DNA of 55,493 nucleotides from a virus (taxonomy: Duplodnaviria > Heunggongvirae > Uroviricota > Caudoviricetes): IMG/VR virus record IMGVR_UViG_2663763400_000006; one strand, 5' to 3'. The position numbers and the translations under genes are program-made. The notes beneath the pieces were generated by a model that worked only from the letters and a program-made list of their open reading frames with translations, was not told the origin of the DNA and did no database searches. Positions 5,536 through 38,924 of the stretch are shown one piece after another. Positions within the stretch are counted from its first letter, which is position 1, and each line of letters begins with the position of its first letter.

Positions 5536-5536
5536 A

Positions 5537-12881: not shown

Positions 12882-13826
12882 TTGATAGGATCAAAAATGG
12901 CACAACAGAGAACTACCTCCCTCAGATCCATACCTTTAGACTTAGATGTTAAGCAAGAGGCTGTCATTAACGGTATAGAAATGGGGGTACTCGATAACGG
13001 AATTCCGTACCTTACTCAGAATGGGTTGGCAAATGTTTGTGGTGTTCAGCGTTTGCGAATCAAGGAAATTACCGATGAGTGGGCTCAATCTGTTGAGAAC
13101 GGTATTTTCAAAAAAGGAAGAATGACTTTTATTGGTACATATCTTCTTAATGAAGGTTTTACAGATGAAAAACTTTATATACCAATAATTCGAAATGGTG
13201 TTGAGTACCATGCTTATCCAGATGTTGTATGCATGGCTATACTTGAATACTATGCCTTTGAAGCAAAACAAGCAGAAAGTGAGACTGCAATTAGATCTTA
13301 CAGAGAGCTTGCTAAAAAAGGCCTCAAGACATTTATATACGAGGCGCTAAAATATCAACCGGAGGACCCGTGGAGGCATTACCATGACAGAGTATCTTTA
13401 TTAAAAGATAAGGGAACCATACCTGATGGGTATTTCATTATATTTAATGAAATTGCAGGTATGATGGTAGATCTCATCAATGCTGGATTAGCGATTAATC
13501 AGCATACCGTACCTGATGGCAGTGTTGGTTCTTGCTGGGCGCGTCACTGGAAAGCAAAGGGGTTAGCAACAGAATTTGGAGAAAGAGTAGACTGTGAGCA
13601 TTATTACCCTGAAGATTTTCTTCAGGCAAGTTCCAATCCTCAGATCATTAATGCCTATCCTGATTCTGCATTGTCAGAGTTTCGTAGATGGTTTAAGCAT
13701 GAATATTTAACCACAAAGTTCCCACCGTATATTCTTAAAAAATCAAACGTGCTTCCTGGTGGTACAGAAGATGCTAATCGTCTGATAGAAGCTTTCAAAA
13801 AATCAGAGCTAGAAAATAAACCATAA
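12882..13826 (+). CDS. Hypothetical 314-aa protein (accessory gene in the nin region)
   Basis: Long AT-rich ORF with an upstream AT-rich leader; no domain I can assign with confidence. Confidence 0.5.
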   Translation: MIGSKMAQQRTTSLRSIPLDLDVKQEAVINGIEMGVLDNGIPYLTQNGLANVCGVQRLRIKEITDEWAQSVENGIFKKGRMTFIGTYLLNEGFTDEKLYIPIIRNGVEYHAYPDVVCMAILEYYAFEAKQAESETAIRSYRELAKKGLKTFIYEALKYQPEDPWRHYHDRVSLLKDKGTIPDGYFIIFNEIAGMMVDLINAGLAINQHTVPDGSVGSCWARHWKAKGLATEFGERVDCEHYYPEDFLQASSNPQIINAYPDSALSEFRRWFKHEYLTTKFPPYILKKSNVLPGGTEDANRLIEAFKKSELENKP

Positions 13827-14022
13827 TTGTTTTTTGGCTTTTGATTTTACATAATCATTTTGCCATAATCATGTCATCGGAGCCTGAACAACTCCGGTGA
13901 CTTCTGCGCTAAACGGGGACGTTTATGCGCACATACAATCCAAACTCTCTTCTCCCTTCACAGATGCAGAGATGCACCTGCGATTTTTTGCATCCAGCGT
14001 TTGACCTCTGCGGAGGTGAAGC

Positions 14023-14478
14023 GTGAATCTCCCACAAGATGGCATCAAATTACATCGCGGTAACTTCACCGCTATCGGTCGGCAGATCCAGCCTTATCTG
14101 GAGGAGGGCAAATGCTTTCGCATGGTGCTTAAACCGTGGCGTGAGAAACGCAGTCTTTCCCAGAATGCACTCAGCCACATGTGGTACAGCGAAATCAGTG
14201 AATACCTCATCAACAGGGGTAAAACGTTCGCCACTCCAGCTTGGGTAAAAGATGCTCTCAAACACACATATCTCGGTTATGAAACCAAAGACCTGGTTGA
14301 TGTCGTAACCGGTGATATCACCACTATCCAGTCGTTACGCCATACCTCCGATCTTGATACCGGAGAGATGTATGTCTTCCTGTGTAAGGTTGAAGCCTGG
14401 GCGGTGAATATTGGCTGCCACCTGACTATTCCGCAGAGCTGCGAGTTCCAGCTGCTCCGTGACAAGCAGGAGGCGTAA
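14023..14478 (+). CDS. ybcN: YbcN/NinB-like protein
   Basis: 151 aa (GTG start with GGAGG Shine-Dalgarno); matches DLP12 YbcN as recalled and occupies the NinB position. Confidence 0.6.
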
Positions 14479-15511: not shown

Positions 15512-15868
15512 ATGCGTGATATGTATGAAGTAATGGATCGTTGGGGAGCTTGGGCTGCTTCAGACAATAGCGGAGTGGACTGGCAGCCGATAGCGGCTGG
15601 TTTCAAGGGACTTTTACCTCATGGCAAAAAGTCACGGATTCAGTGTGATGATGACGAAGGCATCATGATAGACAGTTGTGTGGCTCGGTTGAGAAGGTAT
15701 AAACCAGAGGAATATGAGCTCATCATCGCCCACTTTGTTATCGGTATCTCATTACGCACTATTGCGAAGAAGAGAAAATGCTCTGATGGCACAATTAGGA
15801 AGGAACTGCAAACTGCAATGGGGTTTGTTGACGGCTGTTTAGCAATGTTAGCTTATAGTATGGCATAA
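15512..15868 (+). CDS. Q: Late-gene antiterminator Q (phage 82/21-type)
   Basis: MRDMYEVMDRWGAWAASDNSGVDWQPIAAGFKGLLP... with Cys/His-rich core; position after rusA. Confidence 0.7.
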   Translation: MRDMYEVMDRWGAWAASDNSGVDWQPIAAGFKGLLPHGKKSRIQCDDDEGIMIDSCVARLRRYKPEEYELIIAHFVIGISLRTIAKKRKCSDGTIRKELQTAMGFVDGCLAMLAYSMA

Positions 15869-17062
15869 AAAATAAAATAGATTTACTGCCGATTTTTCAA
15901 AAAAGACTGGGAACTGTTTATATCCAACGTAAATAAGGCCTCCATAAAACATGGCTGATGCGAGATATTTAACAGTTCTCATCCTTTTTTTAGCTTTATC
16001 AATCAAACCTGTAATGCTACTCTTAATACTATCTGCATTATCTTTGATTTCTTTATTTTCTTCAAACTTTAAATACTTATCGAAAGCGGACTCCACTCGA
16101 GAACGTAAGTTGTCGAATGTTTCATTGAATATCTCAATAGAAATGTAATTGACTTTTTTTATCATCCAAAGTCCTGCGATAATCAATATTGCTTCGGTTG
16201 TTTCATTAGCCTTCACTAAGCCACCAGCTGCTATTAATGCACCGGGAATAGTCAATGCTTTTGTCTGATTAGATGATATGAATTCGTTAATTTTACTCGT
16301 GAACTCAAGATTTTTCTCATCGAGTTCGTTAAGAATTTTATTTACAGAAAACCTCTTTGTGTAAATCTCATATAGTTCATCATATTTTTTCCTGACGAGT
16401 TCAGTAGAGTTAAGCAAGTCAAAGAAATTGAACGTACCATTTGCTTTAAATACTTCGTTTATGGCTGAGCGTATAACGAGCTTGCGCTCGCTTTTGTGTA
16501 AATCATTGATTTTTATTGTGTCGAGAAGCTCCTTTATAATTTCATATTTAAGAGACGAGTTCGATAAGCGATTAATCTCGCTATATTGTAAAAAATGCGT
16601 GAGTTCGACTGTATAACTTTTGTCTTCATTGGTGAAAAATAAGACAGAGCAGTCACTGTTATGATGATCAGCAATTAATGAAAGGATATCTTTCCACATA
16701 AAGAAAATATGGATTTTTTCGATGCTTTCATTCTTAGAAGTAGGGAGTATTAACGGCGTTCCGATGATATAATTTTTCGGAAGAGCGTTTTGGGTGTTTA
16801 CTCTAGACCAAAAAGACTCAACATTCTCATAAATTATAGCATCATCCCAAGATGAAGCTTGGCGATCTAGCCAAATTTCATTATTTTCGATGCAGGTTGT
16901 TGCCTTTTTATAACCTATAGATTGTAACAGTCTAATTATTTCAGAACTATTTACAATAACAATGCTTTCTTCAAGACTTATGACAGTGTAGTAGCCCTCA
17001 ACTCTGCTTGAGGCTCCGTTAATAATCTGCGCTAATCTTGATAAGTCATCAGCAATTGTCAT
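15848..17062 (-). CDS. Unknown 404-aa protein with C-terminal transmembrane helices (cassette gene 2)
   Basis: ATG at 17062, 2 bp after the upstream gene stop; strongly AT-rich; hydrophobic helices near the C-terminus (LTIPGALIAAGGLV, AILIIAGLWMI, YLASAMFYGGLIYVGY). Confidence 0.6.
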   Translation of the reverse strand: MTIADDLSRLAQIINGASSRVEGYYTVISLEESIVIVNSSEIIRLLQSIGYKKATTCIENNEIWLDRQASSWDDAIIYENVESFWSRVNTQNALPKNYIIGTPLILPTSKNESIEKIHIFFMWKDILSLIADHHNSDCSVLFFTNEDKSYTVELTHFLQYSEINRLSNSSLKYEIIKELLDTIKINDLHKSERKLVIRSAINEVFKANGTFNFFDLLNSTELVRKKYDELYEIYTKRFSVNKILNELDEKNLEFTSKINEFISSNQTKALTIPGALIAAGGLVKANETTEAILIIAGLWMIKKVNYISIEIFNETFDNLRSRVESAFDKYLKFEENKEIKDNADSIKSSITGLIDKAKKRMRTVKYLASAMFYGGLIYVGYKQFPVFFEKSAVNLFYFLCHTIS

Positions 17063-17064
17063 TA

Positions 17065-18240
17065 TTAGCTGTCTCTATATCTTTTGAGTTCATCATAATT
17101 TGCCTGACTCAATTTTATCACAATTTCGCATTTGTTGTCAGTGAGAATTACAGGCTTATTTGACTTTTCGTCTCCAATAGCTCCACGCATTATTTTCAAC
17201 TTAAAATTATTGTCGTTATCTGCCACTTCAATTGTAAGCGCGCTTTCAGCTGCTTTAGGAGTTGGTTCAAATTGAGGGTCAATCTGGAAACCATTAAGAT
17301 TAACAAAATCGACAAACGTTCCCTTACATTTGTGTGAATCAGTCAGGCATGAGTCAATTATTTTTGAAATATCCTCTATCTTAACGGACTTATTTCCGTG
17401 TTTATCTTTTGATTTTTTTTCCAGTAAGGATTTAACTTCATTGTCAATAGTATCACGCAGTACACGACCGAGTGAGTTTTTACTAGCAAAAATATCTATA
17501 GCACTGAATAATTGCTGAATGCTTCTTTTATTGTCCGAATCATGTCGGCAACCTAATGAGTCTTTGAAAAAATCGCTTTTAGATTTACCTTGCAAGAAAT
17601 GTACATATGAGTCACCCTTGTTTTCTGGATAACTGGCTTCGAATAAAGTTAAATCGAACATCGCAGCCTGCCGTAAGGCATCGGTATTAATTGGATTTAA
17701 TCTTGTTGGGGTCAACTTATCCGAATCAAAGTCATAGGCGCTTTGTTTATCAACCATTACGATTAGAAGTTTCCCCAAATCCTCTGGTTCGGTAGACTTA
17801 TAGTGGATGAAAACAACGCTCCCCCCCTGAAGTTGGGCAACTCTCGATTCGTTATTAGCATTATGTTTAAGCTTCTCTATTATAGCTCTAGATAAATCAA
17901 TGAATTCATTATTCTTATTAATGTATTTTTTTAGGATCGTAGGAATGGATGAAGGGTTGTGATCTGAGTCTAGGAAGTTATGAAATTTGTTTTTTCGGCT
18001 AAATTTTTTCTCAATTCTGGTTATGAATTCAGATGTGACTTCATTTTTTAGATCCCAAACTTCACCTAATCGATAATCAAATGCTCTTGAATCATTTTTT
18101 TCAAGATTTGCTGTTACAGCACCAATAGGAAAGTACGATTGTTTGCCCAGCACTACAACATGAGGCGTGGCACCGCATTTATCGCAAGCTACAGTTGGGT
18201 CGTCAAGAACATTGCCACATTCTAAACAAGTTATATCCAT
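17065..18240 (-). CDS. Zn-ribbon plus YejK/NdpA-like (NA37 nucleoid-associated family) protein (cassette gene 1)
   Basis: N-terminal CLECG...CDKCG zinc ribbon; motifs GGSVVFIHYK and YVHFLQGKSKSDFFKDSLG resemble YejK ([32 protein letters not shown]) as recalled; AT-rich. Confidence 0.55.
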   Translation of the reverse strand: MDITCLECGNVLDDPTVACDKCGATPHVVVLGKQSYFPIGAVTANLEKNDSRAFDYRLGEVWDLKNEVTSEFITRIEKKFSRKNKFHNFLDSDHNPSSIPTILKKYINKNNEFIDLSRAIIEKLKHNANNESRVAQLQGGSVVFIHYKSTEPEDLGKLLIVMVDKQSAYDFDSDKLTPTRLNPINTDALRQAAMFDLTLFEASYPENKGDSYVHFLQGKSKSDFFKDSLGCRHDSDNKRSIQQLFSAIDIFASKNSLGRVLRDTIDNEVKSLLEKKSKDKHGNKSVKIEDISKIIDSCLTDSHKCKGTFVDFVNLNGFQIDPQFEPTPKAAESALTIEVADNDNNFKLKIMRGAIGDEKSNKPVILTDNKCEIVIKLSQANYDELKRYRDS

Positions 18241-19827: not shown

Positions 19828-20121
19828 TTATTGTGAGCAATACACACGCGCTTCCAGCGGAGTATAAATGCCTAAAGTAATAAAACCGAGCAATCCATTT
19901 ACGAATGTTTGCTGGGTTTCTGTTTTAACAACATTTTCTGCGCCGCCACAAATTTTTGCTGCATCGACAGTTTTCTTCTGTCCAATTCCCGAAACGAAGA
20001 AGTGATGGGTGATGGTTTCCTTTGGTGTTACTGCTGTAGGTTTGTTTCCAACAGTAAACGTCTGTTGAGCACATCCTGTAATAAGCATTGCCAGAGCGGC
20101 AGAAAACAACATTTTTTTCAT
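19828..20121 (-). CDS. bor: Bor lipoprotein (serum-resistance factor)
   Basis: Start MKKMLFSAALAMLITGCAQQTFTV... matches lambda Bor as recalled; lipobox ITGC. Confidence 0.9.
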   Translation of the reverse strand: MKKMLFSAALAMLITGCAQQTFTVGNKPTAVTPKETITHHFFVSGIGQKKTVDAAKICGGAENVVKTETQQTFVNGLLGFITLGIYTPLEARVYCSQ

Positions 20122-20839: not shown

Positions 20840-21060
20840 CATTTTGCGGGTCCTTTCCGGCGATCCGACAGGTTACGGGGCGGCGACCTCGCGGGTTTTC
20901 GCTATTTATGAAAATTTTCCGGTTTAAGGTGTTTCCGTTCTTCTTCGCCGTAACCTAATGTTTTTATTTAAAACACCCCCTGAAAAGAAAGGAAACGACA
21001 GGTGCTGAAAGCGAGCTTTTTGGCCTCTGTCGTTTCCTTTCTCTGTTTTTGTCCGTGGAA
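20840..21060. other. Phage cos site (cosQ-cosN-cosB)
   Basis: GGGCGGCGACCT cohesive-end sequence at about 20878-20889 inside gggtcctttccggcgatcc...cgggttttcgctatttatga, directly upstream of Nu1; lambda-like as recalled. Confidence 0.85.
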
Positions 21061-21612: not shown

Positions 21613-25293
<3,681 letters not shown>

Positions 25294-25313
<20 letters not shown>

Positions 25314-27010: not shown

Positions 27011-27256
27011 ATGTCGATGTACACAACCGCCCAGCTGCTGGCGGCAAATGAGCAGAAATTTAAGTTTGATCCGCTGTTTCTGCGTCTCTTTTTCCGTGAG
27101 AGCTATCCCTTCACCACGGAGAAAGTCTATCTCTCACAAATTCCGGGGCTGGTAAACATGGCGCTGTACGTTTCGCCGATTGTTTCCGGTGAGGTTATCC
27201 GCTCCCGTGGCGGCTCCACCTCTGAATTTACGCCGGGATATGTCAAGCCGAAGCAC
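27011..27256 (+). pseudogene. E: Major capsid protein E, 5' fragment truncated by an insertion
   Basis: MSMYTTAQLLAANEQKFKFDPLFLRLFFRESYPFTTEKVYLSQIPGLVNMALYVSPIVSGEVIRSRGGSTSEFTPGYVKPKH then diverges into 9 unrelated codons and a stop at 27286. Confidence 0.85.
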
Positions 27257-27365
27257 TTAGCATGGCTTTCTGAGGCTTTCGTGTAGTTGCTGGTTTTTAC
27301 ACTTAATCTTTTGATAATAAAGAATAAGTTTATCTGGTGCTTTCACTGAATTTTCCTCGTTATCT

Positions 27366-27403
27366 GTGTGTTGCAATCATCTCTGTATTGCAGCTTGTAT
27401 TGC
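27366..27403. repeat. TGTATTGCA-type direct repeats upstream of the island integrase (possible arm sites)
   Basis: ctgtgtgttgcaatcatctctgtattgcagcttgtattgc; a similar pair occurs near the right end at about 38014-38040. Confidence 0.4.
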
Positions 27404-27418
27404 TTTTTGGGGCTAAAA

Positions 27419-28654
27419 ATGGCTGGCGAGAACAAACTGAGCGACAAAGCGCTTAAAGGATATCTGGGGAAACCCAGAGAAAAGCAGATCACCATTGCTG
27501 ATGGAAAGGGGCTTTCTATTCGTGTGAGTACTAAAGGGGCTGTGAGCTTTGTTTTCTTCTACAGGTTAGCAGGTGGCCGGGCTGCTCCGGTCTGGCTAAC
27601 GTTGGGTAAATATCCTGATATGTCACTCAAACAGGCAAGGGAAAAGCGCGACGAGTGCCGTGGTTGGTTGGCTGACAAACGTGATCCGCGTATCCAGATT
27701 AAGATTCAGGCTGAAGAACGCTTAAAGCCGGTCACTGTGGAGGATGCACTAAATTACTGGTATGAAAATTACTGTAAGGTGCGTCGTAAAACTCATGCTG
27801 TAACGCTTGGCAGATTTCGAAAGCATATCTTTCCCTATATCGGTCATTTGCCCGTAAATGACACTCACCTATATGAATGGCTGGACTGTTTTGACCGAAT
27901 TAAACGTAATGCACCAGTTATGGCGGCGTATGTTTTTTCTGACACTAAATTAGCTCTTCGTTTTTGTCGGGTACGCCAGTACGCGACGTGTGATGCTTTA
28001 AAGGATTTGCGCATGAGTGATGTGGGGCAGATTGCAGGTAAGCGGGATCGGGTTCTGGATGAAGCCGAACTCGGCCAGCTCTGGAAGGCAATTTTTGTCG
28101 AGCCTGATTTAAAACTAATGTCTGAATACACGCGAAAAATGTTTGTGCTTTGTACAGTATTTGGATGTCGAATGAGTGAAGCCCGATTATCAGAATGGAG
28201 CGAATGGGATCTCGAAAGTTGGGTTTGGACTGTACCAAAAGATCACTCAAAAACTGGTGTTGAAATCGTCAGACCAGTACCTGAAATTCTACGACAGTGG
28301 GTAACGGATGTTCACGAAGAGACAAAACATACTGGTTATGTGCTGGGAAGTCTGCGAATTAGAGAAAGCGTAAGCAAGATTGGGGGGAAAATCGGTAAAC
28401 GTTTGGGCCATGAAAAACAATGGTCACTACACGACCTTAGAAGAACGCTATCTACTCATCTAAGTGATCTCGGTGTTGAATTTTATGTAGTAGAACAACT
28501 GTTAGGCCATGCGCTACCTGGCGTGGCAGGTGTTTACAACCGGAGTAAGTTTATGGCTAAAAAACTGGATGCTCTGGAACTCTGGACTACATATCTCAAT
28601 AGCATCGCAGGTGCTGATTCAAAAGTGACAATCCTCAAACAAAAGGTTGGTTAA
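27419..28654 (+). CDS. int: Island tyrosine integrase (P4/CP4-57 type)
   Basis: MAGENKLSDKALKG...GKGLSIRVSTKG N-terminus typical of P4-family integrases; C-terminal HDLRRT...LGHA...YNRSK catalytic motifs. Confidence 0.85.
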   Translation: MAGENKLSDKALKGYLGKPREKQITIADGKGLSIRVSTKGAVSFVFFYRLAGGRAAPVWLTLGKYPDMSLKQAREKRDECRGWLADKRDPRIQIKIQAEERLKPVTVEDALNYWYENYCKVRRKTHAVTLGRFRKHIFPYIGHLPVNDTHLYEWLDCFDRIKRNAPVMAAYVFSDTKLALRFCRVRQYATCDALKDLRMSDVGQIAGKRDRVLDEAELGQLWKAIFVEPDLKLMSEYTRKMFVLCTVFGCRMSEARLSEWSEWDLESWVWTVPKDHSKTGVEIVRPVPEILRQWVTDVHEETKHTGYVLGSLRIRESVSKIGGKIGKRLGHEKQWSLHDLRRTLSTHLSDLGVEFYVVEQLLGHALPGVAGVYNRSKFMAKKLDALELWTTYLNSIAGADSKVTILKQKVG

Positions 28655-28655
28655 C

Positions 28656-28883
28656 ATGAAAAAAATGGCAATTGTTGATAAAAAGGGTCTGGAGTACATT
28701 CCTAACATTGACCGAATGATCCGTGAGAAAGAATGTCGGGAGCTAACCACTCTTGCGAACAGCACACGCTGGAAGCTGGAGAAGGAAGGAAAATTTCCTA
28801 AGCGGATCAAGATTGGTTCCACTGCTGTTGCATATCGTCTTTCAGAAGTGCAGGCATGGATTCGAGGTGAGTGGGTAGTTTAA
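28656..28883 (+). CDS. alpA: AlpA-family excisionase/transcriptional regulator
   Basis: MKKMAIVDKKGLEYIPNIDRMIREKECRELTTLANSTRWKLEKEGKFPKRIKIGSTAVAYRLSEVQAWI, AlpA-like HTH; directly follows the integrase. Confidence 0.7.
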   Translation: MKKMAIVDKKGLEYIPNIDRMIREKECRELTTLANSTRWKLEKEGKFPKRIKIGSTAVAYRLSEVQAWIRGEWVV

Positions 28884-28952
28884 ATTATCTCAGAATAAAA
28901 TATTATGAATTACTGATTTGAGAATTTGTACTCAAATCAGTAATAACATTCT

Positions 28953-29489
28953 TTATAAGAGATTAAATCCAAATAAAGAGTAATCATATACCGGGGTGCA
29001 TTGCATTCCACTGAATATGCTGATGTTTTTTTCTGTTTCTATCCTTTTTTCAATAAGTTGTTGTATATTTTTACAGTACAATTTGTGTGTGATGTTATTA
29101 TCGTAAGCCTGATATAGCAACGTCAATGTTGACGCTAGGAAACATACAGATAAAATTAAAGTAACATATGCGGTTTTTTTATTTTTTGTCCATGATCTAT
29201 TTGTTTGTGAAATATAAAGAATTCTGATGTGGATAATGGTGAGAGACAATAGCAGGCCACTCAATAAAATAAGTATTGGGTTTGCGTATTTTATTAATGG
29301 TTGAGAGCAAAAAACTATTATAGCTCCTGTGACTGCGTATGAGAAAAAGGAGTAATTAAACTTCTTACTCCTTCTCTCAAGTATTTTAATTTCATCTTGT
29401 GTGGGGGTTTTAGATGCCTCTAATATAAGTTTATTGAATGTTTCTGTTATCTTGTTTTTTGTGTTTGTGGCTATTTTTTTTAGATTCAT
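28953..29489 (-). CDS. Unknown multi-pass membrane protein (island cargo)
   Basis: 178-aa ORF, extremely AT-rich, three to four hydrophobic helices; antisense to int and alpA. Confidence 0.5.
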   Translation of the reverse strand: MNLKKIATNTKNKITETFNKLILEASKTPTQDEIKILERRSKKFNYSFFSYAVTGAIIVFCSQPLIKYANPILILLSGLLLSLTIIHIRILYISQTNRSWTKNKKTAYVTLILSVCFLASTLTLLYQAYDNNITHKLYCKNIQQLIEKRIETEKNISIFSGMQCTPVYDYSLFGFNLL

Positions 29490-29839
29490 AGCATTCTAAC
29501 TCCCTTAACTTATTTATTACTTTCTCTTTATGATAAGAGAGGGGAATGACTTGGTAAAGTGATTTGTCATTAATAATGATAATCCTTGCGATAAATATTT
29601 CTGCAAGTTATTTATCTGTTTGTTGCTATCTTGTTAAGCGTTGGGTGTGGTTTATGTTTGGAGCGACTTTATTTAATCGTGATTTTATGGATTTATATTT
29701 ATATCCTGTAAGATAAGCGCATGTTAGTTCAGGAGTAGTGTCAGATAAAATTATTCGGAGTAGAACTACCTTTTCTGTTTATTGCCAGTATTTACATAGC
29801 AATGCGCCGTAGTTACTCACATCACGGCGCTGATACTAA

Positions 29840-30142
29840 TTATTCAGATTCTTTGGCTTTACGCCGCTGGAGTTCTTCACGAGCGACGGCTACGAGTTGC
29901 CCGATTTCCTCCGCTGCCTTGATGCCGATTTGTTCGACCTTAGCTAAGGCATCCAGTGAAGACACGAGGGGATTTTCTCCGCTTCCTTCTGCCTGGCGGC
30001 GGGCGATCTCACCGCGCATGGCGGTTACTATGAATCCGGCGTTGCTCTCGCCGTCCAGTTTTACGGATTCCATGCCCTCCATAACATCGTGGGGAACCCT
30101 GATCGTTGTCATTTGCGATTTTGCATTTTTGTATACAGACAT
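29840..30142 (-). CDS. Putative ribbon-helix-helix regulator (candidate island repressor)
   Basis: 100-aa ORF (MTTIRVPHDVMEGMESVKL...), divergent from the rightward island operon across a repeat-containing intergenic region. Confidence 0.4.
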   Translation of the reverse strand: MSVYKNAKSQMTTIRVPHDVMEGMESVKLDGESNAGFIVTAMRGEIARRQAEGSGENPLVSSLDALAKVEQIGIKAAEEIGQLVAVAREELQRRKAKESE

Positions 30143-30149
30143 AGTTAAT

Positions 30150-30260
30150 CACCAATTTGTTATGTGTATATCACTATACACAAAAGTGATATATAAAAAC
30201 ACTTGCAATGTATATCACCACAATATAATGTATATCTCACATTATGGTCGCTATGTATCT
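30150..30260. promoter_or_regulatory. Island divergent promoter/operator region with TGTATATCAC-type repeats
   Basis: tgtgtatatcactatacacaaaagtgatatataaaaacacttgcaatgtatatcaccacaatataatgtatatctcaca: four or more copies of TGTATATC(A/T)C in both orientations. Confidence 0.45.
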
Positions 30261-30350
30261 CACAATGATCGATTCATAAAAACGACGAAACCCGGCAGTG
30301 CGCGAACACTAACCGGGCTTCTAACCAAACCGTTAAACGAGGTAACGATT

Positions 30351-30716
30351 ATGGCTGGAACACAGCATACCCAAACTCACCCTAAATTTATATACACCTT
30401 TCTGGCACTACACCACGACCGCATGGCAGATGGAGCAACTACGGTACATGTAGCCGCTGACACGCTGGTTGATGCCCGCAAGATGGTTAAGGAGATGGGC
30501 TATACTGCGGCTTTCTGGAAAGGGCGTGAAGAAAACACGCTGTTTATTCAGAAATGCGAAAACAATTTCATCTGGCGTTTTATCGCCCTGAGTACGGCAC
30601 AACCGCGCGTGATTCACATCGTGGCCACCAGCGAACAGGAAGCCCGCCAGCAATCCCCGGCTGGTTGCGTGAGGGTATTCGCCGCCCGTATTCGTCAGGA
30701 GGTATGCCGTGCTTAA
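30351..30716 (+). CDS. Hypothetical protein, first gene of the rightward island operon
   Basis: 121-aa ORF beginning MAGTQHTQTHPKF; the ORF-track entry 29802..30716 is this gene with a spurious upstream extension. Confidence 0.4.
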   Translation: MAGTQHTQTHPKFIYTFLALHHDRMADGATTVHVAADTLVDARKMVKEMGYTAAFWKGREENTLFIQKCENNFIWRFIALSTAQPRVIHIVATSEQEARQQSPAGCVRVFAARIRQEVCRA

Positions 30717-30894
30717 AACCTTCCGTGTATTTGCCCGAGCGGTTAACCCACGAGGCCACACAATTGGTATCACTCAGAACGTGAAGGCTGTTAATGTTCA
30801 GACGGCTATTGCTGTGGTGAGAAGCGAATCATCAGAATATGGCTTATCACAAGTCATTATTTCAGCAGTGTATGAATTAAAAGAGGTGCATTAA
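30709..30894 (+). CDS. Hypothetical small protein
   Basis: 61-aa ORF, tightly packed with neighbours. Confidence 0.3.
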   Translation: MLKTFRVFARAVNPRGHTIGITQNVKAVNVQTAIAVVRSESSEYGLSQVIISAVYELKEVH

Positions 30895-31085
30895 TGCAGG
30901 AAATTACATTACACGAAGCCGCTGAACGTGCGCACCAGACAGAAATTATTTGCCGCCTTCTTGAGGTATACCCGAACAAAATTACAGATGCTGATATATC
31001 CGCACTGGCGAGCCTACTGGCGCGTCTTTCGGGAAGTGTCGCTAGTTTTTTGATTGAGGAAGAAAGTAAGCTGGTGGGGGATTAA
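30894..31085 (+). CDS. Hypothetical small protein
   Basis: 63-aa ORF, start overlaps the previous stop. Confidence 0.3.
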   Translation: MQEITLHEAAERAHQTEIICRLLEVYPNKITDADISALASLLARLSGSVASFLIEEESKLVGD

Positions 31086-31307
31086 ATGAATACAGAACGG
31101 GAAGTCTTTTTTAAATTGTTAGCATGTGCAGAAAGTTCATTAACTTTAAATAATTCAGCAAAAGCAATATTAAATATGTGGCTTGATTGCATAAATGACA
31201 ATGAAGATGCAAATATTGCTTATGGCCTGTTGTCACTTATTGATGAAGCAGCAGAAAAACTCAATGACGCAATAAATAGTGCCCTGTTATCAAATAAGTC
31301 GAGTTAA
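31086..31307 (+). CDS. Hypothetical small protein
   Basis: 73-aa acidic ORF. Confidence 0.3.
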   Translation: MNTEREVFFKLLACAESSLTLNNSAKAILNMWLDCINDNEDANIAYGLLSLIDEAAEKLNDAINSALLSNKSS

Positions 31308-31324
31308 GTCGAGGAATAAATAAT

Positions 31325-31624
31325 ATGGAAATGAAAAATTCTGGCTTTATTGCCAGCGGCCCCGCTCGGCCTGAATTTATGAACGGCGATATTTACCGCG
31401 ATAAATACGGCGGCACGGTAACGATTAAAGGCGTGGCAGAACGGCGCATCACTTACCGCCGTGAGGGGTATAGCTATGACTGCGTGATGCCTGTTTATCA
31501 GTTCCGGCGTGATTTTTCCCTGGTATATGCCGCACCTCGCAGTAAGCCCACCAGCAGGGAAAAAGCGCGGGGAAACATCCAGAAAATGAAAAGCATGATT
31601 AACGCATTCAGGGGCAAAAAATGA
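31325..31624 (+). CDS. Hypothetical small protein
   Basis: 99-aa ORF overlapping the primase start. Confidence 0.3.
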   Translation: MEMKNSGFIASGPARPEFMNGDIYRDKYGGTVTIKGVAERRITYRREGYSYDCVMPVYQFRRDFSLVYAAPRSKPTSREKARGNIQKMKSMINAFRGKK

Positions 31625-33372
31625 AACTGGCACCGAACTTAAAAAAACAGCCACGCGACAGACTGACAGAGGTAATCATCTTTGCAGGTAGTGATGCGTG
31701 GAGCCATGCGAAAGAGTGGCAGGAATGGGCGGGTAAACATATTGCCGCCGACGATGTGCCGCCTGTCGTGCTGGCTGATGAGCAACTGAAAAACATCATC
31801 GATTACCGGATCATTGATGAAGATCGTCAGTGTGTGCGTGTTTACCGCGCAGGACATATCACAGAGCACAGCATGACGCAGATTGTTACGTTACTGGCTG
31901 TGGCTGGAGTGAAGACCGTACACGAATACGCGGGGATTACTGACACCAGCCCCGTGGATTTATCCGACCAGTTGCCGCGACTCAAAGAGGAATGCGAGCG
32001 TGGGGAAAGTCTGGTGCTTAATCTTCCGACGAAGCAAAAGGCGCAACTTTCACAGATGGCAGACAGTGAACGTGCACAACTACTTGCCGATCGCTTTGAT
32101 GGTGTGTGTGTTCATGCAGAAAGTGAAATCGTCCACGTATGGCGCGGCGGGGTATGGTGTCCGGTCAGCACAATGGAGCTGAGCCGCGAAATGGTGGCGA
32201 TCTATTCAGAGCACAGGGCCACGTTCAGCAAACGTGTAATCAATAACGCCGTGGAAGCGTTAAAAGTTATTGCCGACCCCATGGGGGAGCCGTCCGGTGA
32301 TTTACTACCGTTCACTAATGGTGTGCTTAACCTGAAAACGGGGGATTTTTCTCCGCACTTACCGGAGCACTGGAGCACCACGCACAATGGCATTGAGTAC
32401 ACGCCACCAGTAGCAGGGGAAAACATCCGCGATAATGCGCCAAATTTCCATAAATGGCTTGAACATGCTGCAGGAAAAGACCCGCGCAAGATGATGCGTA
32501 TATGTGCCGCGTTATACATGATTATGGCGAACCGCTACGACTGGCAGATGTTCATTGAGGCCACCGGAGACGGGGGAAGCGGTAAGAGTACATTTACCCA
32601 TATTGCCACCCTGCTTGCTGGCAAACAGAACACCGTAAGCGCAGAGATGACATCACTCGATGATGCAGGAGGGCGCGCGCAGGTTGTCGGGAGTCGTCTT
32701 ATCGTCCTTGCCGATCAGCTGAAATATACGGGGGAAGGCACGGGCATCAAGAAAATCACGGGAGGCGATCCCGTTGAAATTAACCCGAAATATGAGAAGC
32801 GATTCACGACGATAATAAGGGCGGTGGTACTGGCAACCAATAACGACCCGATGATCTTTACCGAACGGGCCGGAGGTGTGTCACGCCGTCGGGTGATTTT
32901 CCGGTTCGACAACATTGTAAGGGAGGACGAAAAAGACAAGGAATTACCGGAAAAGATAGCGGCAGAAATCCCCGTAATTATCCGCCGCTTGCTGGCTAAT
33001 TTTGCTGACCCTGAAAAGGCACGGGCTTTATTACTGGAACAGCGTGACGGTGATGAAGCTCTGGCAATAAAGCAGCAAACGGATCCGGTTGTTGAGCTTT
33101 GCGCGGCGCTGGAGTTTCTGGAGGAAGCTCGTGGGCTAATGATGGGCGGTGGTGGTGACACCGTGAAGTACACGACCAGAAACAGCCTTTACCGTGTCTA
33201 TATGGCCTTCATGGCATATACAGGAAAGGGGAAATGTTTGAGCGTGAATGAGTTCGGAAAGGCTATGAGGTCAGCGGCGAAAGTTTACGGATATGAATAT
33301 ATTACGCGAAAAGTTAAGGGAGTCACGCAGACCAACGCAACGACTACTGATGATTGCGATGCGTTTTTATAA
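31621..33372 (+). CDS. Primase-helicase replication protein (D5_N / P4 alpha-like)
   Basis: 583 aa with Walker A GDGGSGKST and downstream helicase-like motifs. Confidence 0.8.
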   Translation: MKLAPNLKKQPRDRLTEVIIFAGSDAWSHAKEWQEWAGKHIAADDVPPVVLADEQLKNIIDYRIIDEDRQCVRVYRAGHITEHSMTQIVTLLAVAGVKTVHEYAGITDTSPVDLSDQLPRLKEECERGESLVLNLPTKQKAQLSQMADSERAQLLADRFDGVCVHAESEIVHVWRGGVWCPVSTMELSREMVAIYSEHRATFSKRVINNAVEALKVIADPMGEPSGDLLPFTNGVLNLKTGDFSPHLPEHWSTTHNGIEYTPPVAGENIRDNAPNFHKWLEHAAGKDPRKMMRICAALYMIMANRYDWQMFIEATGDGGSGKSTFTHIATLLAGKQNTVSAEMTSLDDAGGRAQVVGSRLIVLADQLKYTGEGTGIKKITGGDPVEINPKYEKRFTTIIRAVVLATNNDPMIFTERAGGVSRRRVIFRFDNIVREDEKDKELPEKIAAEIPVIIRRLLANFADPEKARALLLEQRDGDEALAIKQQTDPVVELCAALEFLEEARGLMMGGGGDTVKYTTRNSLYRVYMAFMAYTGKGKCLSVNEFGKAMRSAAKVYGYEYITRKVKGVTQTNATTTDDCDAFL

Positions 33373-33389
33373 AAAATGGCAATGGTTAT

Positions 33390-33640
33390 CTACCTTGTCT
33401 ACCTGACTGAAATAAAATACTTTTATTTCAATGTATTAATGCAGGTAGATAACTATTTTTCACTGTCTACCTGTTATCTACCTTATCTACCCATTTTTGT
33501 AGACAGGTAAGGAGACGGGTAGAGATGAGGTAGACAGCTATTTGGGGCTGTCTACCTCCCTGAAACCCGCGCCATTACTGGCCTGATAACTAATCAGGTA
33601 GACAAGGTAGACAAGGTGGTGGTGCACAAAAAACTTTTTA
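33390..33640. repeat. Island replication origin iterons
   Basis: Ten or more copies of GGTAGACA / TGTCTACC in both orientations immediately downstream of the primase-helicase gene. Confidence 0.65.
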
Positions 33641-33661
33641 AACGAGGGGGTAAAAATAAAA

Positions 33662-33904
33662 ATGCACACATCAGGAAAACTGAACAAACATATAAAGCCA
33701 CATTACCGCGCCCTTGATATGGCTGAACACTGGCTAAGGGTGGCGATTAAGGCAATAGACCGCAACGCCGGGGAAGGATACGCGAAAGCACATCCCGAAC
33801 TGATAAGCGCATTCATGACAACGGCGGCTGCAAACTTTGCCACGCTGACCGAACGGGAGATTGCCGAAGCGGAGGAAGTGACAACCATCAATATTAAGTC
33901 CTGA
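33662..33904 (+). CDS. Hypothetical protein
   Basis: 80-aa ORF between the origin and ssb. Confidence 0.3.
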   Translation: MHTSGKLNKHIKPHYRALDMAEHWLRVAIKAIDRNAGEGYAKAHPELISAFMTTAAANFATLTEREIAEAEEVTTINIKS

Positions 33905-33915
33905 GAGCAGGCAGC

Positions 33916-34365
33916 ATGACGGCGCAAATAGCAGCTTACGGGCGGCTGGTGGACGACCCACAGGTAAAACATACCAGCAAGGGAACACCCATGACACTGG
34001 CACGGATGGCGGTATCTTTGCCATGCAGCCAGGCAGATGACGGAACGGCGACGATGTGGTTATCTGTGCTGGCGTTTGGCAGACAAGCCGACGCGCTGGC
34101 AAAGCATCACAAAGGCGAACTCCTGAGCGTGGCGGGTAATATGCAGGTGAGCCAGTGGAGCGGACAGAACGGGGAAACGCGGCAGGGCTGGCAGGTTATC
34201 GCAGACAGCGTAATCAGTGCCAGAACGGTGCGACCGGGCGGCAAAAAAGGTCAACAGGGGCAGGCTACTGATGCACTGAACAGAGCAAAACAACAGGCAG
34301 ATCAGCAAGGAAGCCATCCACCAGTGGGAGATAATGAGCAATGGGGAGATGATATTCCGTTTTAA
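33916..34365 (+). CDS. ssb: Single-stranded DNA-binding protein
   Basis: OB-fold-like N-terminal domain and Gly/Gln-rich tail ending in the acidic motif DDIPF. Confidence 0.7.
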   Translation: MTAQIAAYGRLVDDPQVKHTSKGTPMTLARMAVSLPCSQADDGTATMWLSVLAFGRQADALAKHHKGELLSVAGNMQVSQWSGQNGETRQGWQVIADSVISARTVRPGGKKGQQGQATDALNRAKQQADQQGSHPPVGDNEQWGDDIPF

Positions 34366-34575
34366 ATATTGCCAATAAAAAAGGCCGGAAAAAATATATT
34401 TTCCGGCATGCTACATAAATCCCGACCAAAGGGAGTGAAGATATTAACACTAATTATCCGCGCTGAAGTTGTCATCCCAAAACTTTATACAACATTGCAC
34501 TCGGTTGCATGTGTTAGCATGACAAATATCGGTGATAGCATATATCCACAATTATTTTTAATGAATGTAAAGAGG

Positions 34576-35622
34576 ATGAGTATGGTTGATTTATATTCGC
34601 CTGCCCAGCTTGTGCAGGTGGCTAATGCAGAAGAGGTGCAAAAAAAATTAAATGCATTGTTTACCAGTTTGTTTTTCACTCGCTCGGTAATGTTTGAATC
34701 AAGAGACATTATTCTTGATACAATCGACGATCCAAATATCCCAATTGCAGCGTTTTGTTCTCCTATGGTGGGTAGTAAAGTTTCACGTGACGAAGGGTAC
34801 GAATCAAAGACAATTCGTCCAGGCTATATGAAGCCGAAAAGCAGCATTGATCCAAATAAGTTAGCTGTGCGCCCTGCTGGTGTATCACCTGAGCAATACA
34901 ATGCTTTTGGAGCGCGTAATATTAAAGTTAAACAGGCGATTGTAAATCAGGCTAAAGCTATTCGTGCACGTATTGAATGGCTTGCCGTTCAGGCAATCAC
35001 AACGGGGAAAAATATCATTGAGGGCGATGGCATTGAACGCTATGAACTGGACTGGAATATAAAACCACAAAATATTATCACGCAGTCCGGCGGTGCTGAG
35101 TGGTCAGGTAAGGATAAAGAAACTTTTGATCCAAATGATGATATTGAGAGCTACGCAGAATTTAGTGAGGGCGTCACTAATATCATCATTATGGGCGGTA
35201 ATGTATGGAAGAAATACCGTTCATTCAGAGCGATAAAAGAGGCTCTGGATACCCGTCGTGGTTCTAATTCCGAACTGGAAACGGCCCTTAAAGACCTTGG
35301 TGATTCGGTGAGTTTTAAAGGGTATATGGGCGATGTTGCGATTGTTGTATACAGCGGGCGTTATACCGACGAGGACGGAACTGAAAAACATTTCCTTGAT
35401 CCTGATTTGATGGTGCTTGGCAATACGGCTCTTCAGGGGATTGTCGCCTATGGCGGTATTCAGGATCCGGAGCTAATCCGAATGGGGCTGACTAAAGCCG
35501 AACTTGCACCGAAAAACTATATTGTGCCTGGTGATCCGGCTATTGAATATGTGCAGACACATTCAGCACCACAGCCAATACCGGCCCGCATCAATCGTTT
35601 TGTTACCGTTCGCATTGGCTAA
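34576..35622 (+). CDS. Island-encoded major capsid protein homologue (divergent gpE)
   Basis: TQSGGAEWSGKDKETFDPNDDIESYAEF...RSFRAIKEALDTRRGSNSELETALKDLG...YMGDVAIVVYSG aligns with lambda E (TQSGGTEWSKRDKSTYDPTDDIEAYAL...FRSFKAVKEKLDTRRGS.SELETAVKDLG...GDVAIVVYSG); ATG 34576 with AAGAGG Shine-Dalgarno. Confidence 0.8.
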   Translation: MSMVDLYSPAQLVQVANAEEVQKKLNALFTSLFFTRSVMFESRDIILDTIDDPNIPIAAFCSPMVGSKVSRDEGYESKTIRPGYMKPKSSIDPNKLAVRPAGVSPEQYNAFGARNIKVKQAIVNQAKAIRARIEWLAVQAITTGKNIIEGDGIERYELDWNIKPQNIITQSGGAEWSGKDKETFDPNDDIESYAEFSEGVTNIIIMGGNVWKKYRSFRAIKEALDTRRGSNSELETALKDLGDSVSFKGYMGDVAIVVYSGRYTDEDGTEKHFLDPDLMVLGNTALQGIVAYGGIQDPELIRMGLTKAELAPKNYIVPGDPAIEYVQTHSAPQPIPARINRFVTVRIG

Positions 35623-35631
35623 GGGGGAGCA

Positions 35632-35973
35632 ATGGCTACTCATTACACTGAACTCATGGCTGGCACTGAAGCACTGGTGACTACGCTGGGGATATTTTCA
35701 GCTAATAAAGGGGTAATTCCTGCATTTACGCCACTGATGCAGGAAGATGCAACAGGTGCACTGGTGGTATGGGATGGTTCGAGCGTAGGTAAAGCGGTTT
35801 ATGTTTCCGCTGTACAAATCGACACCGCGAAAAAAACACAGGCTCAGGTCTATAAGACAGGTGTCTTAAATGTTGATGCTCTGAACTGGCCTGAGTCTGT
35901 AAAAGAACTGTCAGTAAAGATTGCAGCGTTTGTTGGCTCAGGTATTTCTGTTCAGCCGCTGGCTCGTGTGTAA
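35632..35973 (+). CDS. Island-encoded decoration protein homologue (gpD-like)
   Basis: FTPLMQEDATGALVVWDGSSVGKAV and VYKTGVLNVDALNWPE align with lambda D ([41 protein letters not shown]). Confidence 0.65.
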   Translation: MATHYTELMAGTEALVTTLGIFSANKGVIPAFTPLMQEDATGALVVWDGSSVGKAVYVSAVQIDTAKKTQAQVYKTGVLNVDALNWPESVKELSVKIAAFVGSGISVQPLARV

Positions 35974-35984
35974 AGGGGGATACA

Positions 35985-36368
35985 ATGCAGAATCATTACA
36001 ATGACCTTAAGCCAATTGCCGAAATGATGTATCCGGATCCAGCAGTAGAGGAATTAAAGGCTATTGCTGACAAAATGCGTTTAAGCGAGCGTCTTGTTGA
36101 TATGAATCAGGTGATGGAACTTACAACCCTGAGTCGTCGTACACTGCTAAACCTTGAAGCACGTGGAGAGTTCCCCGAACGCGTGCAGGTTACGGAAGGG
36201 CGTAAGGCCTGGTATTTAAGCGAAGTGATCGACTGGATAAACAATATTCCGCGCGCTTCTGAATATTGCCGCGTACCTGTCCCAAAAAAGCCAGATGCGG
36301 CGCTATGCCTCAAGATTGAGCGTGTACGCCGCAATGCGCGGGATGGTCGCTATAAGCTGATTGGTTGA
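35985..36368 (+). CDS. AlpA-like HTH protein (second copy in the island)
   Basis: LTTLSRRTLLNLEARGEFPERVQVTEGRKAWYLSEVIDWI resembles the AlpA-family HTH signature. Confidence 0.45.
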   Translation: MQNHYNDLKPIAEMMYPDPAVEELKAIADKMRLSERLVDMNQVMELTTLSRRTLLNLEARGEFPERVQVTEGRKAWYLSEVIDWINNIPRASEYCRVPVPKKPDAALCLKIERVRRNARDGRYKLIG

Positions 36369-36379
36369 TGAAATTAGGG

Positions 36380-36470
36380 CCCGTTCTGGCTGGCGGGTCC
36401 TTTCCGGCGATCCAGAACGTTACGGGGCGGCGACCTCGCGGGTTTTCGCTATTTATGAGCATTTTTAGGG
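36380..36470. other. Second cos site (island), cosN conserved with the prophage cos
   Basis: gggtcctttccggcgatccagaacgttacggggcggcgacctcgcgggttttcgctatttatga is nearly identical to 20840-20910; downstream (cosB) sequence differs. Confidence 0.75.
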
Positions 36471-36584
36471 GACTGGTGGTGGTTTTGTTGTTCGCTATAT
36501 CTGTATGAATAATAAGAGAAAAACACAATCAACACACCAACCTGAAACAGTAATTAAGTTGTGGTATCAATGAAATTGCACCTG

Positions 36585-37112
36585 ATGAACAAAAAAAACA
36601 TGGCAAAAAGTTGCCGTGTAAGCGCCACTGCGTTCGATAAGTGGGGAGTGATTCCCGTCGAGCGTAAGGGCCGCGAGGCGTTTTATGATGTCGCCAGTGT
36701 AATAGATAATCGGGTTAACAATGCAATCAGCCAGATTACAAACGAAACGGGCGAGATTGATGATGATGAACTCCTACGAGTCAGGATCAGATTGCTGACA
36801 GCACAGGCAGAGGCGCAGGAGCTTAAAAACGAGCGCGAACGCGGCGACGTTATTGATACAGCGTTTTGTATATACGTGCTTTCAAAACTGGCGAGTCAGA
36901 TTTCTTCAATCATGGACAGCCTGCCGCTTGCCATGACAAGGAAGTTTCCCGACATGAAGCCGTCTATGCTGGATGGACTGAAAAAAGAAGTTATCAGAGC
37001 CTGTAACGCATGCGCAAAACTTGACGAAAACATACCGCTGATGCTGTCCGATTATCTGATGGAAACTGCCGGAAACGTACCGGATAAGTTGCAGCTGAAT
37101 AAAGATAAGTAA
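36585..37112 (+). CDS. Island small terminase homologue (Nu1-like)
   Basis: LLTAQAEAQELKNERERGDVIDTAFCIYVLSKLASQISSIMDSLPLAMTRKFPDMK aligns with prophage Nu1 LTRAQADAQELKNARDSAEVVETAFCTFVLSRIAGEIASILDGIPLSVQRRFPELE; start taken at MNKKNMAK. Confidence 0.75.
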   Translation: MNKKNMAKSCRVSATAFDKWGVIPVERKGREAFYDVASVIDNRVNNAISQITNETGEIDDDELLRVRIRLLTAQAEAQELKNERERGDVIDTAFCIYVLSKLASQISSIMDSLPLAMTRKFPDMKPSMLDGLKKEVIRACNACAKLDENIPLMLSDYLMETAGNVPDKLQLNKDK

Positions 37113-37123
37113 CGTAGTACGCT

Positions 37124-37405
37124 ATGACTGAATCCGAAATACTGCGATTAATCCGCCGTGCTTGTGGAATCAGCAAGCAGCATGACGAACAGGCCACGCA
37201 GCCGGACAGCGTGATCGCCGAAAATTACGCGCGTGTTGTTGCTGATGTGATGCGCCGTGATGGTATTGAGCTTAACGGCGTGGATATGCGCGACATACGG
37301 ATCAGATTCCTTGAGTTGCTGGCATACCGTCGCCGTTCTCAACAACGAAGGGAGAGCGCGAAAAACACTTATCAGTGGAAGAAGCCGGAACGGTTGCGGC
37401 GGTAG
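37124..37405 (+). CDS. Hypothetical protein
   Basis: 93-aa basic ORF following the terS-like gene. Confidence 0.3.
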   Translation: MTESEILRLIRRACGISKQHDEQATQPDSVIAENYARVVADVMRRDGIELNGVDMRDIRIRFLELLAYRRRSQQRRESAKNTYQWKKPERLRR

Positions 37406-38141
37406 ATTCCTGATATTCAGGAAAACCACGAATCCGGGGGTTTTACTGGCGCGGTGTACACGGTGGAACGTATAGCGTTACCTGACTTATTGCATTGTAA
37501 AAAGTTGAAAGGCACGGCCTGTAAGATGGGATGTGGTGAGTAGTTTAAAGCTACCCGCAAATTCTTTCGTTGTGCTGGCACAGGCGGTTAAACCGTCGGT
37601 AACTGGATAATCCCCACTGGGGGAAAAGCTGGCTACATCCCTCACATCTGAGGACTGATAACGCAAAATTGCGTTGGCTGGCAGAGTGCAAATTTGCACG
37701 ATGGCCTAACCCATTGATTCTTTCGAAAACCCCCATTGGGGGAGAACGGGGGAATAAACCTGACTCATTGATTTTTCCACAATCCTTAATTTGAGGAAGC
37801 TGGATAGTTGCACTACCCAAAAAGTGCAGTACCCACATAGCTGCTTAATAGCGTTTATTTTTTCCGCACACCTCAAATCTGAGAAGGCCGGAATGATGAC
37901 ATGGCAGGATTATGATTCCTTGATTTCAAGGAGTCCTCCAGTGTGAAAATGAAATTATCTGGGCTGGTGGGTGAGTTGCTGATCTGCAACTCGGCTATGA
38001 AACTTAATAATCGAACAGCATGTAAATTCATTTCTGTGTATTGCAGCATGTATTGCAACATAGTCATTCTGGTAGAGATTATGCTCTATTTTTCCTCTTA
38101 TATCATTCACATACTTACGTCATTGACTCATGTAGCCGAAG

Positions 38142-38924
38142 CATGAGGTGAATCCGCAGATGACCCTGCGTCGCCTGCCGGATGAAGATCCGCAGAATCT
38201 GGCGGACCCGGCTTACCGCCGCCGTCGCATCATTATGCAGAACATGCGTGACGAAGAGCTGGCCATTGCCCAGGTCGAAGAGATGCAGGCAGTTTCTGCC
38301 GTGCTTAAGGGCAAATACACCATGACCGGTGAAGCTTTCGATCCGGTTGAGGTGGATATGGGCCGCAGTGCGGCCAACAACATCACGCAGTCCGGCGGCA
38401 CGGAGTGGAGCAAGCGTGACAAGTCCACGTATGACCCGACCGACGATATCGAAGCCTACGCGCTGAACGCCAGCGGAGTGGTGAATATCATCGTGTTTGA
38501 TCCGAAAGGCTGGGCGCTGTTCCGTTCCTTCAAAGCCGTCAAGGAGAAGCTGGATACTCGTCGCGGCTCTCATTCCGAGCTGGAGACAGCGGTGAAAGAC
38601 CTGGGCAAAGCGGTGTCCTACAAGGGGATGTATGGCGATGTGGCCATCGTCGTGTATTCCGGACAGTACGTGGAAAACGGCGTCAAAAAGAACTTCCTGC
38701 CGGACAACACGATGGTGCTGGGGAACACTCAGGCACGCGGTCTGCGCACCTATGGCTGCATTCAGGATGCGGACGCACAGCGCGAAGGCATTAACGCCTC
38801 TGCCCGTTACCCGAAAAACTGGGTGACCACCGGCGATCCGGCGCGTGAGTTCACCATGATTCAGTCAGCACCGCTGATGCTGCTGGCTGATCCTGATGAG
38901 TTCGTGTCTGTACAACTGGCGTAA
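38142..38924 (+). pseudogene. E: Major capsid protein E, 3' fragment
   Basis: HEVNPQMTLRRLPDEDPQNLADPAYRRRRIIMQNMRDEE... to the lambda E C-terminus; continues the 5' fragment exactly once the insert is removed. Confidence 0.85.

Follow-up and report, generated by a model that had tools for sequence, protein, structure and literature searches.

The 55,493-nucleotide stretch of viral DNA analysed here (IMG/VR virus record IMGVR_UViG_2663763400_000006; hereafter the window) carries a lambdoid prophage whose major capsid gene, E, is split by a 10,888-bp satellite. With high confidence we assign this satellite to the helper-embedded phage-inducible chromosomal islands (HE-PICIs; PICI, phage-inducible chromosomal island) of the E:Phage_cap_E:80 group, as a mosaic close relative of Eco567.11capE (11capE) residing in E of a prophage at argU. 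An earlier reading of the letters of the sequence, the original prediction, had proposed a PICI-type satellite inserted in the capsid gene of its own helper, and this is borne out by the presence of five PICI core components, by an integrase of the 11capE clade and by the restoration of E when the insert is removed. The same prediction knew of no earlier description of the integration target, and this suggestion of novelty has to be withdrawn: the target was published in 2023 as E:Phage_cap_E:80 (PMC10111431), and the element is a member of a class already described and catalogued in that year, at this exact site.

That a satellite embedded in its helper controls the helper in cis, no helper capsid protein being made until the satellite leaves, is an insight already published. 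What the window adds is a clean, fully intact example of such a satellite in an argU prophage, with its own small terminase (TerS) and cosB beside a helper-type cosQ/cosN, and with a dead portal gene in the helper. The element may serve as a natural test case for which of the two partners gives packaging specificity.

The split capsid gene and its attachment sites

Gene E begins at 27011 and reads as a lambda-type capsid gene up to ...TPGYVKPKH, after which the frame enters unrelated sequence and meets a stop at 27286. The E frame picks up again at 38144 (EVNPQMTLRRL...) and terminates at 38924, which places the split at 27255/38144. In-silico removal of 27256-38143 yields a 1,026-nt in-frame open reading frame (ORF) that encodes a 341-aa E, as expected from the original prediction that deleting about 10.9 kb would rejoin the gene. 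RefSeq labels the same 5' fragment 'major capsid protein, missing C-terminus'.

The 10-bp direct repeat that had been noticed at the bounds of the insert is also present as described: the block AGCCGAAGCA occurs exactly twice in the window (about 0.10 copies expected by chance), once at each junction (Table 1), and a comparison of the flanks of the two copies shows that their identity ends at the 10 bp. Just inside the two ends lies a doubled TGTATTGC motif (tgTGTATTGCantgTGTATTGCa / TGTATTGCnnnnTGTATTGC), which has two exact matches in the whole window against 0.03 expected by chance. The left one starts 133 bp downstream of the centre of the crossover block and the right one ends 82 bp upstream of it; the published spacing of the doubled motif from the attP centre is 132 ± 2 bp downstream and 81 ± 2 bp upstream (PMC10111431). 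These motifs are probably binding sites for the integrase's arm domains or for AlpA. Judged from its junctions, the insertion is site-specific and exactly reversible, and the junctions predicted for the excised state are included in Table 1.

Table 1. Coordinates of the satellite, its attachment sites and the relevant helper features (window positions)
Feature	Position	Strand	Remarks
Helper prophage cos	20870..21042	+	cosN 20878-20889; lambda-type R3/R2/R1 at 20931, 20986, 21032
In-frame TGA in helper portal gene B (23712-25313)	24180..24182	+	RefSeq 'internal stop' in GN06489
E 5' fragment, helper prophage major capsid gene	27011..27255	+	codons 1-81 plus 2 nt
attL identity block AGCCGAAGCA	27246..27255	+	same block in PMC10111431 supplement for E_Phage_cap_E_80 elements
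Helper-embedded PICI	27256..38143	+	10,888 bp, same orientation as helper late operon
Left doubled TGTATTGC motif	27384..27403	+	
Tyrosine integrase, 11capE clade	27419..28654	+	Pfam Arm-DNA-bind_3 + Phage_integrase
AlpA, regulator and presumed excisionase	28656..28883	+	Pfam Phage_AlpA, E = 3e-15
178-aa accessory protein, variable slot after alpA	28953..29489	-	
YlcI/YnfO-family small protein	29840..30142	-	phrog_6522
Icd-like protein	30351..30716	+	PHROG families annotated transcriptional repressor
Four small genes	30709..31624	+	phrog_3672, 1478, 2196, DUF4222/phrog_285
D5-type primase/helicase (pri-rep)	31621..33372	+	Pfam D5_N, DUF5906, Pox_D5; phrog_864
Iteron origin	33387..33613	.	ten TRTCTACC copies, both orientations, around AT-rich stretch
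80-aa protein	33662..33904	+	phrog_1231
Single-stranded DNA-binding protein (SSB)	33916..34365	+	Pfam SSB
E', satellite homologue of capsid protein E	34582..35622	+	Pfam Phage_cap_E, E = 2e-41
D', satellite homologue of decoration protein D	35632..35973	+	Pfam HDPD
Second AlpA-family helix-turn-helix (HTH) protein	35985..36368	+	Pfam
Satellite cos	36389..36465	+	cosQ/cosN shared with helper, then divergent cosB
Satellite cosN, 12 nt, GGGCGGCGACCT	36425-36436	+	
TerS', Nu1-family small terminase	36570..37112	+	Pfam Phage_Nu1, E = 1e-24; phrog_57
93-aa protein after TerS'	37124..37405	+	phrog_1561
Right doubled TGTATTGC motif	38037..38056	+	
attR identity block AGCCGAAGCA	38134..38143	+	
E 3' fragment, helper capsid gene	38144..38924	+	
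Restored-E junction (attB) after excision, predicted			GTCAAGCCGAAGCATGAGGTG
Circular-form junction (attP) after excision, predicted			CATGTAGCCGAAGCACTTAGC

Occupied and empty sites in E. coli genomes

E. coli GN06489 matches the window at 99.87% identity, and a collection of 5,426 complete E. coli genomes allows the distribution of the occupied and empty sites to be followed. The whole element with both junctions is found at 100% identity in four independently assembled complete genomes, and a fifth, related copy at 85% coverage. The occupied attL junction, for which a 400-bp probe across the junction was used and a match counted at 80% or more of the probe length, is found in 173. The reconstructed empty E site is uninterrupted in 3,158 of the 5,426 genomes, at 100% identity in some of them. 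In strain WP2-W18-ESBL-08 a near-isogenic prophage of this lineage has its 341-aa E intact, and the Nu1, A, D and FI proteins of that prophage have accessions identical to those of GN06489. The original prediction had pointed to uninterrupted E genes in related prophages and to the junctions of independent isolates as ways to check it, and it survives both comparisons.

These counts also bear on whether the arrangement is an assembly chimera or a random insertion without site specificity, which we consider extremely improbable. A 10-bp repeat did turn up at least twice in one of 100 shuffles of the window, but 173 independently assembled genomes share the junction and four the full element at 100%, E is restored exactly, the att motifs lie at the published distances, and more than 200 attL/attR pairs have been published (PMC10111431). 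The shared junction, the four full copies and the exact restoration of E exclude assembly error. Among other copies, a diverged relative is seen in strain 550, where it occupies the same position of E in a different lambdoid prophage, and in FDAARGOS_1296 (NZ_CP070066.1, 3571635-3585244) an otherwise 100% identical copy is broken by an IS66-family insertion, with tnpC annotated under the match.

Relationship to the published helper-embedded PICIs

The HE-PICI class was described by Tommasini, Mageeney and Williams (2023, NAR Genom Bioinform; PMC10111431), who mapped 491 elements over 14 sites, the commonest being the E site, E:Phage_cap_E:80, with 201 instances. E. coli NRG857c carries the prototype of that site, 11capE, an 11-kb PICI that lies in capsid gene E of its prophage 50icd and has an attL/attR identity block of 10 bp (PMC10111431). 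After mitomycin C treatment the composite of helper and satellite was excised and replicated, and 11capE then excised precisely from 2 h on (42-98% excised), so that excision and restoration of E have been shown experimentally for 11capE (PMC10111431).

The element in the window resembles 11capE in its target, at about codon 80 of a lambda-type capsid gene E and in the same orientation, in the doubled att motif at the same distances, and in the order int, alpA, accessory genes, pri, ori, SSB, E', D', second AlpA and cos. Its integrase is identical to that of 11capE in NRG857c at 409 of 411 residues (99.5%), which answers the earlier suggestion that the integrase and element be compared with known satellites and which made a tree of the integrase clade unnecessary, and its AlpA (WP_000737991.1) is the same protein. 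Nucleotide identity to 11capE is 99.0% over 27248-30470, the left 3.2 kb, and 95.8% over 33709-36465, from SSB to cos, and the sequence on the element side of attL is identical to the alignment in the supplement of PMC10111431. As in the published class, the element sits inside a lambdoid late gene with int, alpA and pri co-oriented with E, has an integrase of the 11capE clade and the class spacing of the doubled motif, and carries its 10-bp block at the KPKH codons, with E restored on removal. HE-PICIs are organised in the order Integration, Bro, Replication and Late (Tommasini et al. 2023, PMC10111431); three of these zones, Integration, Replication and Late, are readily recognised in the element, and the second zone consists of Icd-like, YlcI-like and small uncharacterised genes.

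Where the element departs from 11capE, it does so in a modular way. The identity block of 11capE is AACCCAAGCA; the block found here is the synonymous variant AGCCGAAGCA, which is also catalogued in PMC10111431, the supplement of which gives an 'agccgaagca' block for E_Phage_cap_E_80 elements within the tRNA-Arg helpers Eco112.58.R and Eco9645.58.R. The helper of 11capE lies at icd and the present one at argU (tRNA-Arg); the primase is merely 48% identical to that of 11capE; and the right end of 11capE, stated to be without terS, has HEPN and DUF262 genes where the present element has a Nu1-like small terminase and a phrog_1561 gene. Since small-terminase-bearing PICIs are common in E. coli (de Sousa et al. 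2023), and since another terS-bearing HE-PICI occupies the same E site in strain 550, we regard this last difference as a module swap and not as the mark of a new kind of element.

Several points weigh against the assignment to the HE-PICIs or against its consequences for this copy. The replication module and the right end are unlike those of 11capE, so regulatory details may differ, and a search of the zone after alpA gave neither a Bro-N domain nor an immunity RNA of the C4/isrK type. Infectious particles were not recovered even for the prototype (PMC10111431), so that helper-dependent transfer still lacks proof throughout the HE-PICI class. The helper portal gene contains an in-frame TGA, by which the life cycle may be blocked here, and the evidence for this strain comes from its sequence.

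Comparison with other satellite classes

The core of the SatelliteFinder PICI model consists of an integrase, an AlpA-type regulator, a primase-replicase, a capsid-like gene and a small terminase (de Sousa et al. 2023). All five of these Gram-negative PICI core components are present in the element (int, alpA, pri-rep, the capsid-like gene and terS), a set that corresponds to the 'Type A' of de Sousa et al. (2023), which they report mostly from E. coli, and the size of the element falls inside the SatelliteFinder PICI range of 10-20 kb. Pfam and PHROG scans of the satellite ORFs gave no tail, holin, portal or head-tail connector gene, all of which the model excludes.

The Gram-negative cos PICI that serves as a model, EcCICFT073 (Fillol-Salom 2018, 2019; PMC6739421), is built on the same backbone (int, alpA, pri-rep, ori, a capsid homologue and cos), and likewise combines a lambda-like cosQ/cosN with a different cosB and uses lambdoid helpers. 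It differs in its chromosomal site and in its use of Rpp, which partners the small terminase of the helper (PMC6739421); the present element has a full Nu1-type TerS. The capsid-forming PICIs (cf-PICIs; Alqurainy 2023), as far as the summary in PMC10085698 describes them, resemble the element in that they bring major capsid, decoration and small terminase genes of their own, together with an int/alpA/primase left half; they are defined there by large terminase, portal, protease and head-tail adaptor/connector genes. A cf-PICI was rejected because no large terminase, portal, protease or adaptor/connector gene was found in the scans of the element ORFs. Satellite P4 has in common with the element a P4-type integrase (Arm-DNA-bind_3 plus catalytic domain), an AlpA-family regulator, a size of about 11 kb and a cos shared with its helper, but the helper here is lambdoid and not P2-like, and the target is a prophage gene and not a tRNA gene. 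A P4-like satellite was rejected as well, no ORF matching the psu-delta-sid operon, epsilon or the alpha primase, and the late region consisting of E', D', AlpA2 and TerS.

Satellite genes and replication origin

The original prediction listed an integrase, AlpA, a primase-helicase, iterons, SSB, capsid and decoration homologues, cos and a small terminase, and every one of these is found again by Pfam, PHROGs and motif counts (Table 1). The core genes of the satellite are all on the plus strand, like those of the helper from Nu1 through J, and int, alpA, the att arms, the origin and cos are intact as read from the sequence. All ten copies of TRTCTACC in the window lie inside 33387-33613, just downstream of the primase gene; the number expected window-wide is 1.55. 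E' has 42% identity to helper E, and D' 38% to helper D. A search of 50,697 phage records gave 42.4% as the highest identity to E', and the lack of any closer relative marks an old satellite-specific lineage and not a recent capture. The second HTH protein matches PDB 8C3T, an AlpA family protein (E = 1.6e-10).

Pfam (gathering score), PHROG and PADLOC searches with the 178-aa accessory protein gave no match, and neither did Pfam, PDB and PADLOC searches with the 93-aa protein; PADLOC, run on nine small or uncharacterised satellite proteins, gave no defence-system match. At 80-92% identity, the gene for the 93-aa protein is matched in about 1,200 of the 5,426 E. coli genomes and is far commoner than the remaining right-end module. 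Rfam at gathering thresholds gave no match in the whole window. At E ≤ 1 on the element, Rfam gave no C4/isrK immunity RNA, the sole match being a sub-threshold one to the SymR antitoxin RNA (30284-30356, minus strand; 35 bits against a gathering score of 61, E = 0.0011), antisense to the stretch just upstream of the Icd-like gene. This match may be due to chance, or it may mark an antisense regulator that replaces the C4/isrK immunity RNAs of other PICIs. A simple scan for promoters and terminators was discarded because its counts were no higher than those in shuffled sequence.

The right end of the satellite, 37406-38133, is non-coding over about 730 bp. Within it, a stretch of about 70-140 nt (37660-37798) has counterparts of 85-98% identity in many E. 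coli genomes, where they lie in intergenic DNA without annotation; one of them, in FORC_031 (L006, 4001-4072), is beside a PerC-family regulator near dinD. The E-site HE-PICI of strain 550 (L007) has a TIR-domain gene after alpA (4886-5761) and an Abi-family gene at its right end (13336-14097), and the HEPN and DUF262 genes of 11capE lie at its right end (L004, 10237-11953), all of which is cargo of a defence-like kind; the present element has the 178-aa protein in the post-alpA slot and no coding cargo at its far right end. From these gene contents the post-alpA slot and the right end look like cargo hotspots.

cos sites and packaging specificity

A 42-nt cosQ/cosN block is shared between satellite (36417-36458) and helper (20870-20911) with one mismatch, and the sequence 3' of the satellite cosN is unrelated to its helper counterpart. 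Lambda R elements (GTTTCCKTTCT) are three in number and confined to the cosB of the helper; none was found downstream of the satellite cos. TerS' is 38% identical to helper Nu1, its N-terminal DNA-binding part being the least conserved and its C-terminal half much better conserved. This anatomy fits a private pair of small terminase and cosB that would act with the large terminase of the helper, for which the small terminase of the SaPI (Staphylococcus aureus pathogenicity island) satellites offers an analogue, and by analogy it may constitute an alternative to the Rpp solution of EcCICFT073. A homologue of Rpp was sought by PDB sequence search with the three likeliest candidates, the 93-aa protein, TerS' and the second HTH protein, and no Rpp structure was matched, although the PDB should hold solved RppC structures; neither the 93-aa protein nor TerS' had any significant PDB match. 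The satellite cos is co-oriented with that of the helper and lies 15.5 kb downstream of it.

A stronger proposition, which we consider unlikely, is that the Nu1-type TerS, the private cosB and the satellite-specific E' and D' make the satellite self-sufficient in packaging specificity and possibly also in building the shell. If so, heads made by the composite while E is split would be of the satellite type, the second, co-oriented cos would disturb cos-to-cos packaging of the unexcised composite, and the satellite would control both the capsid protein that is made and the DNA that is packaged.

Predicted life cycle and alternative explanations

By analogy with the 11capE experiments, SOS induction would cause the whole composite to leave the chromosome and replicate. 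Late transcription antiterminated by Q would then run from D and the 5' fragment of E into int and alpA, and the late excision of the satellite that may follow would restore helper E and release a circle of 10.9 kb able to replicate by means of its own primase and iteron origin. The anatomy of the element suggests that the large terminase of the helper, gpA, could cut satellite DNA, because the helper cosQ/cosN has been kept, and that the distinct cosB together with the Nu1-type small terminase would steer packaging towards the DNA of the satellite. Four copies in tandem would amount to 43.6 kb and fit into a head of lambda size, which agrees with the concatemers of phage length that have been reported for EcCICFT073.

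It is possible, and the most probable of the alternatives that we weighed, if still doubtful, that the element belongs to the HE-PICI family but is a stranded relic, helper and satellite no longer completing a life cycle and the split E being dead in a decaying argU prophage. The in-frame TGA of the portal gene, flagged also in GN06489, speaks for this. Gene B is intact in relatives, sister prophages included; with this nonsense codon the helper-satellite pair is probably unable to make particles without another lambdoid phage, and this particular copy is probably stranded. One sister prophage without the satellite has its internal stop in the protease gene C instead (L005, 4439-5758), which points to a decaying lineage, and on this sequence evidence the argU prophages appear to be decaying independently. 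The IS66 insertion in the sister element of FDAARGOS_1296 and the failure of the prototype to yield virions (PMC10111431) point the same way. But the satellite has kept all its genes, both att arms, its motifs, its iterons and its cos intact, and these are 100% identical across four genomes; int and alpA suffice for excision; and the portal protein could come from a co-resident or superinfecting lambdoid phage.

We also consider it unlikely that E' and D' form a shell of their own, completed by the portal, protease/scaffold and tails of the helper, which would make the element an intermediate between the classical and the capsid-forming PICIs and in which the splitting of helper E would favour the satellite shell. 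Full-length E-like and D-like genes beside an own small terminase, and an E' without a phage relative above 42% identity and so of an old satellite lineage, speak for such an intermediate. Portal, protease, large terminase and head-tail connector genes are, however, absent from the element, and Fillol-Salom (2018, as cited) is credited with the findings that the capsid gene of a PICI is dispensable for transfer and that the E. coli model PICI is packaged as phage-length concatemers.

The helper prophage

The window starts at the end of intD, beside tRNA-Arg (argU, the DLP12 site), and takes in a lambdoid prophage's early, nin, lysis, head and tail genes. Mapping to GN06489 suggests a size of about 56-57 kb for the composite and about 46 kb for the helper alone. 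Between the Q antiterminator and the holin, two genes on the minus strand (15848-18240) encode a 404-aa protein without a Pfam match and a 391-aa protein of the NA37 family (37-kD nucleoid-associated); the two resemble a moron cassette, set in the late-promoter region. The serum-survival lipoprotein gene iss lies between the lysis genes and cos (19828-20121, minus strand), and the nin region (about 10148-12263) contains emrE and the ybcK recombinase gene, all three being typical cargo of the DLP12 site. In the tail-fibre region, the stretches 51985-52233 and 52174-52422 match each other over 249 bp at 83.5% identity with an offset of 189 bp; these overlapping stretches indicate that the side tail fibre gene contains a tandem repeat.

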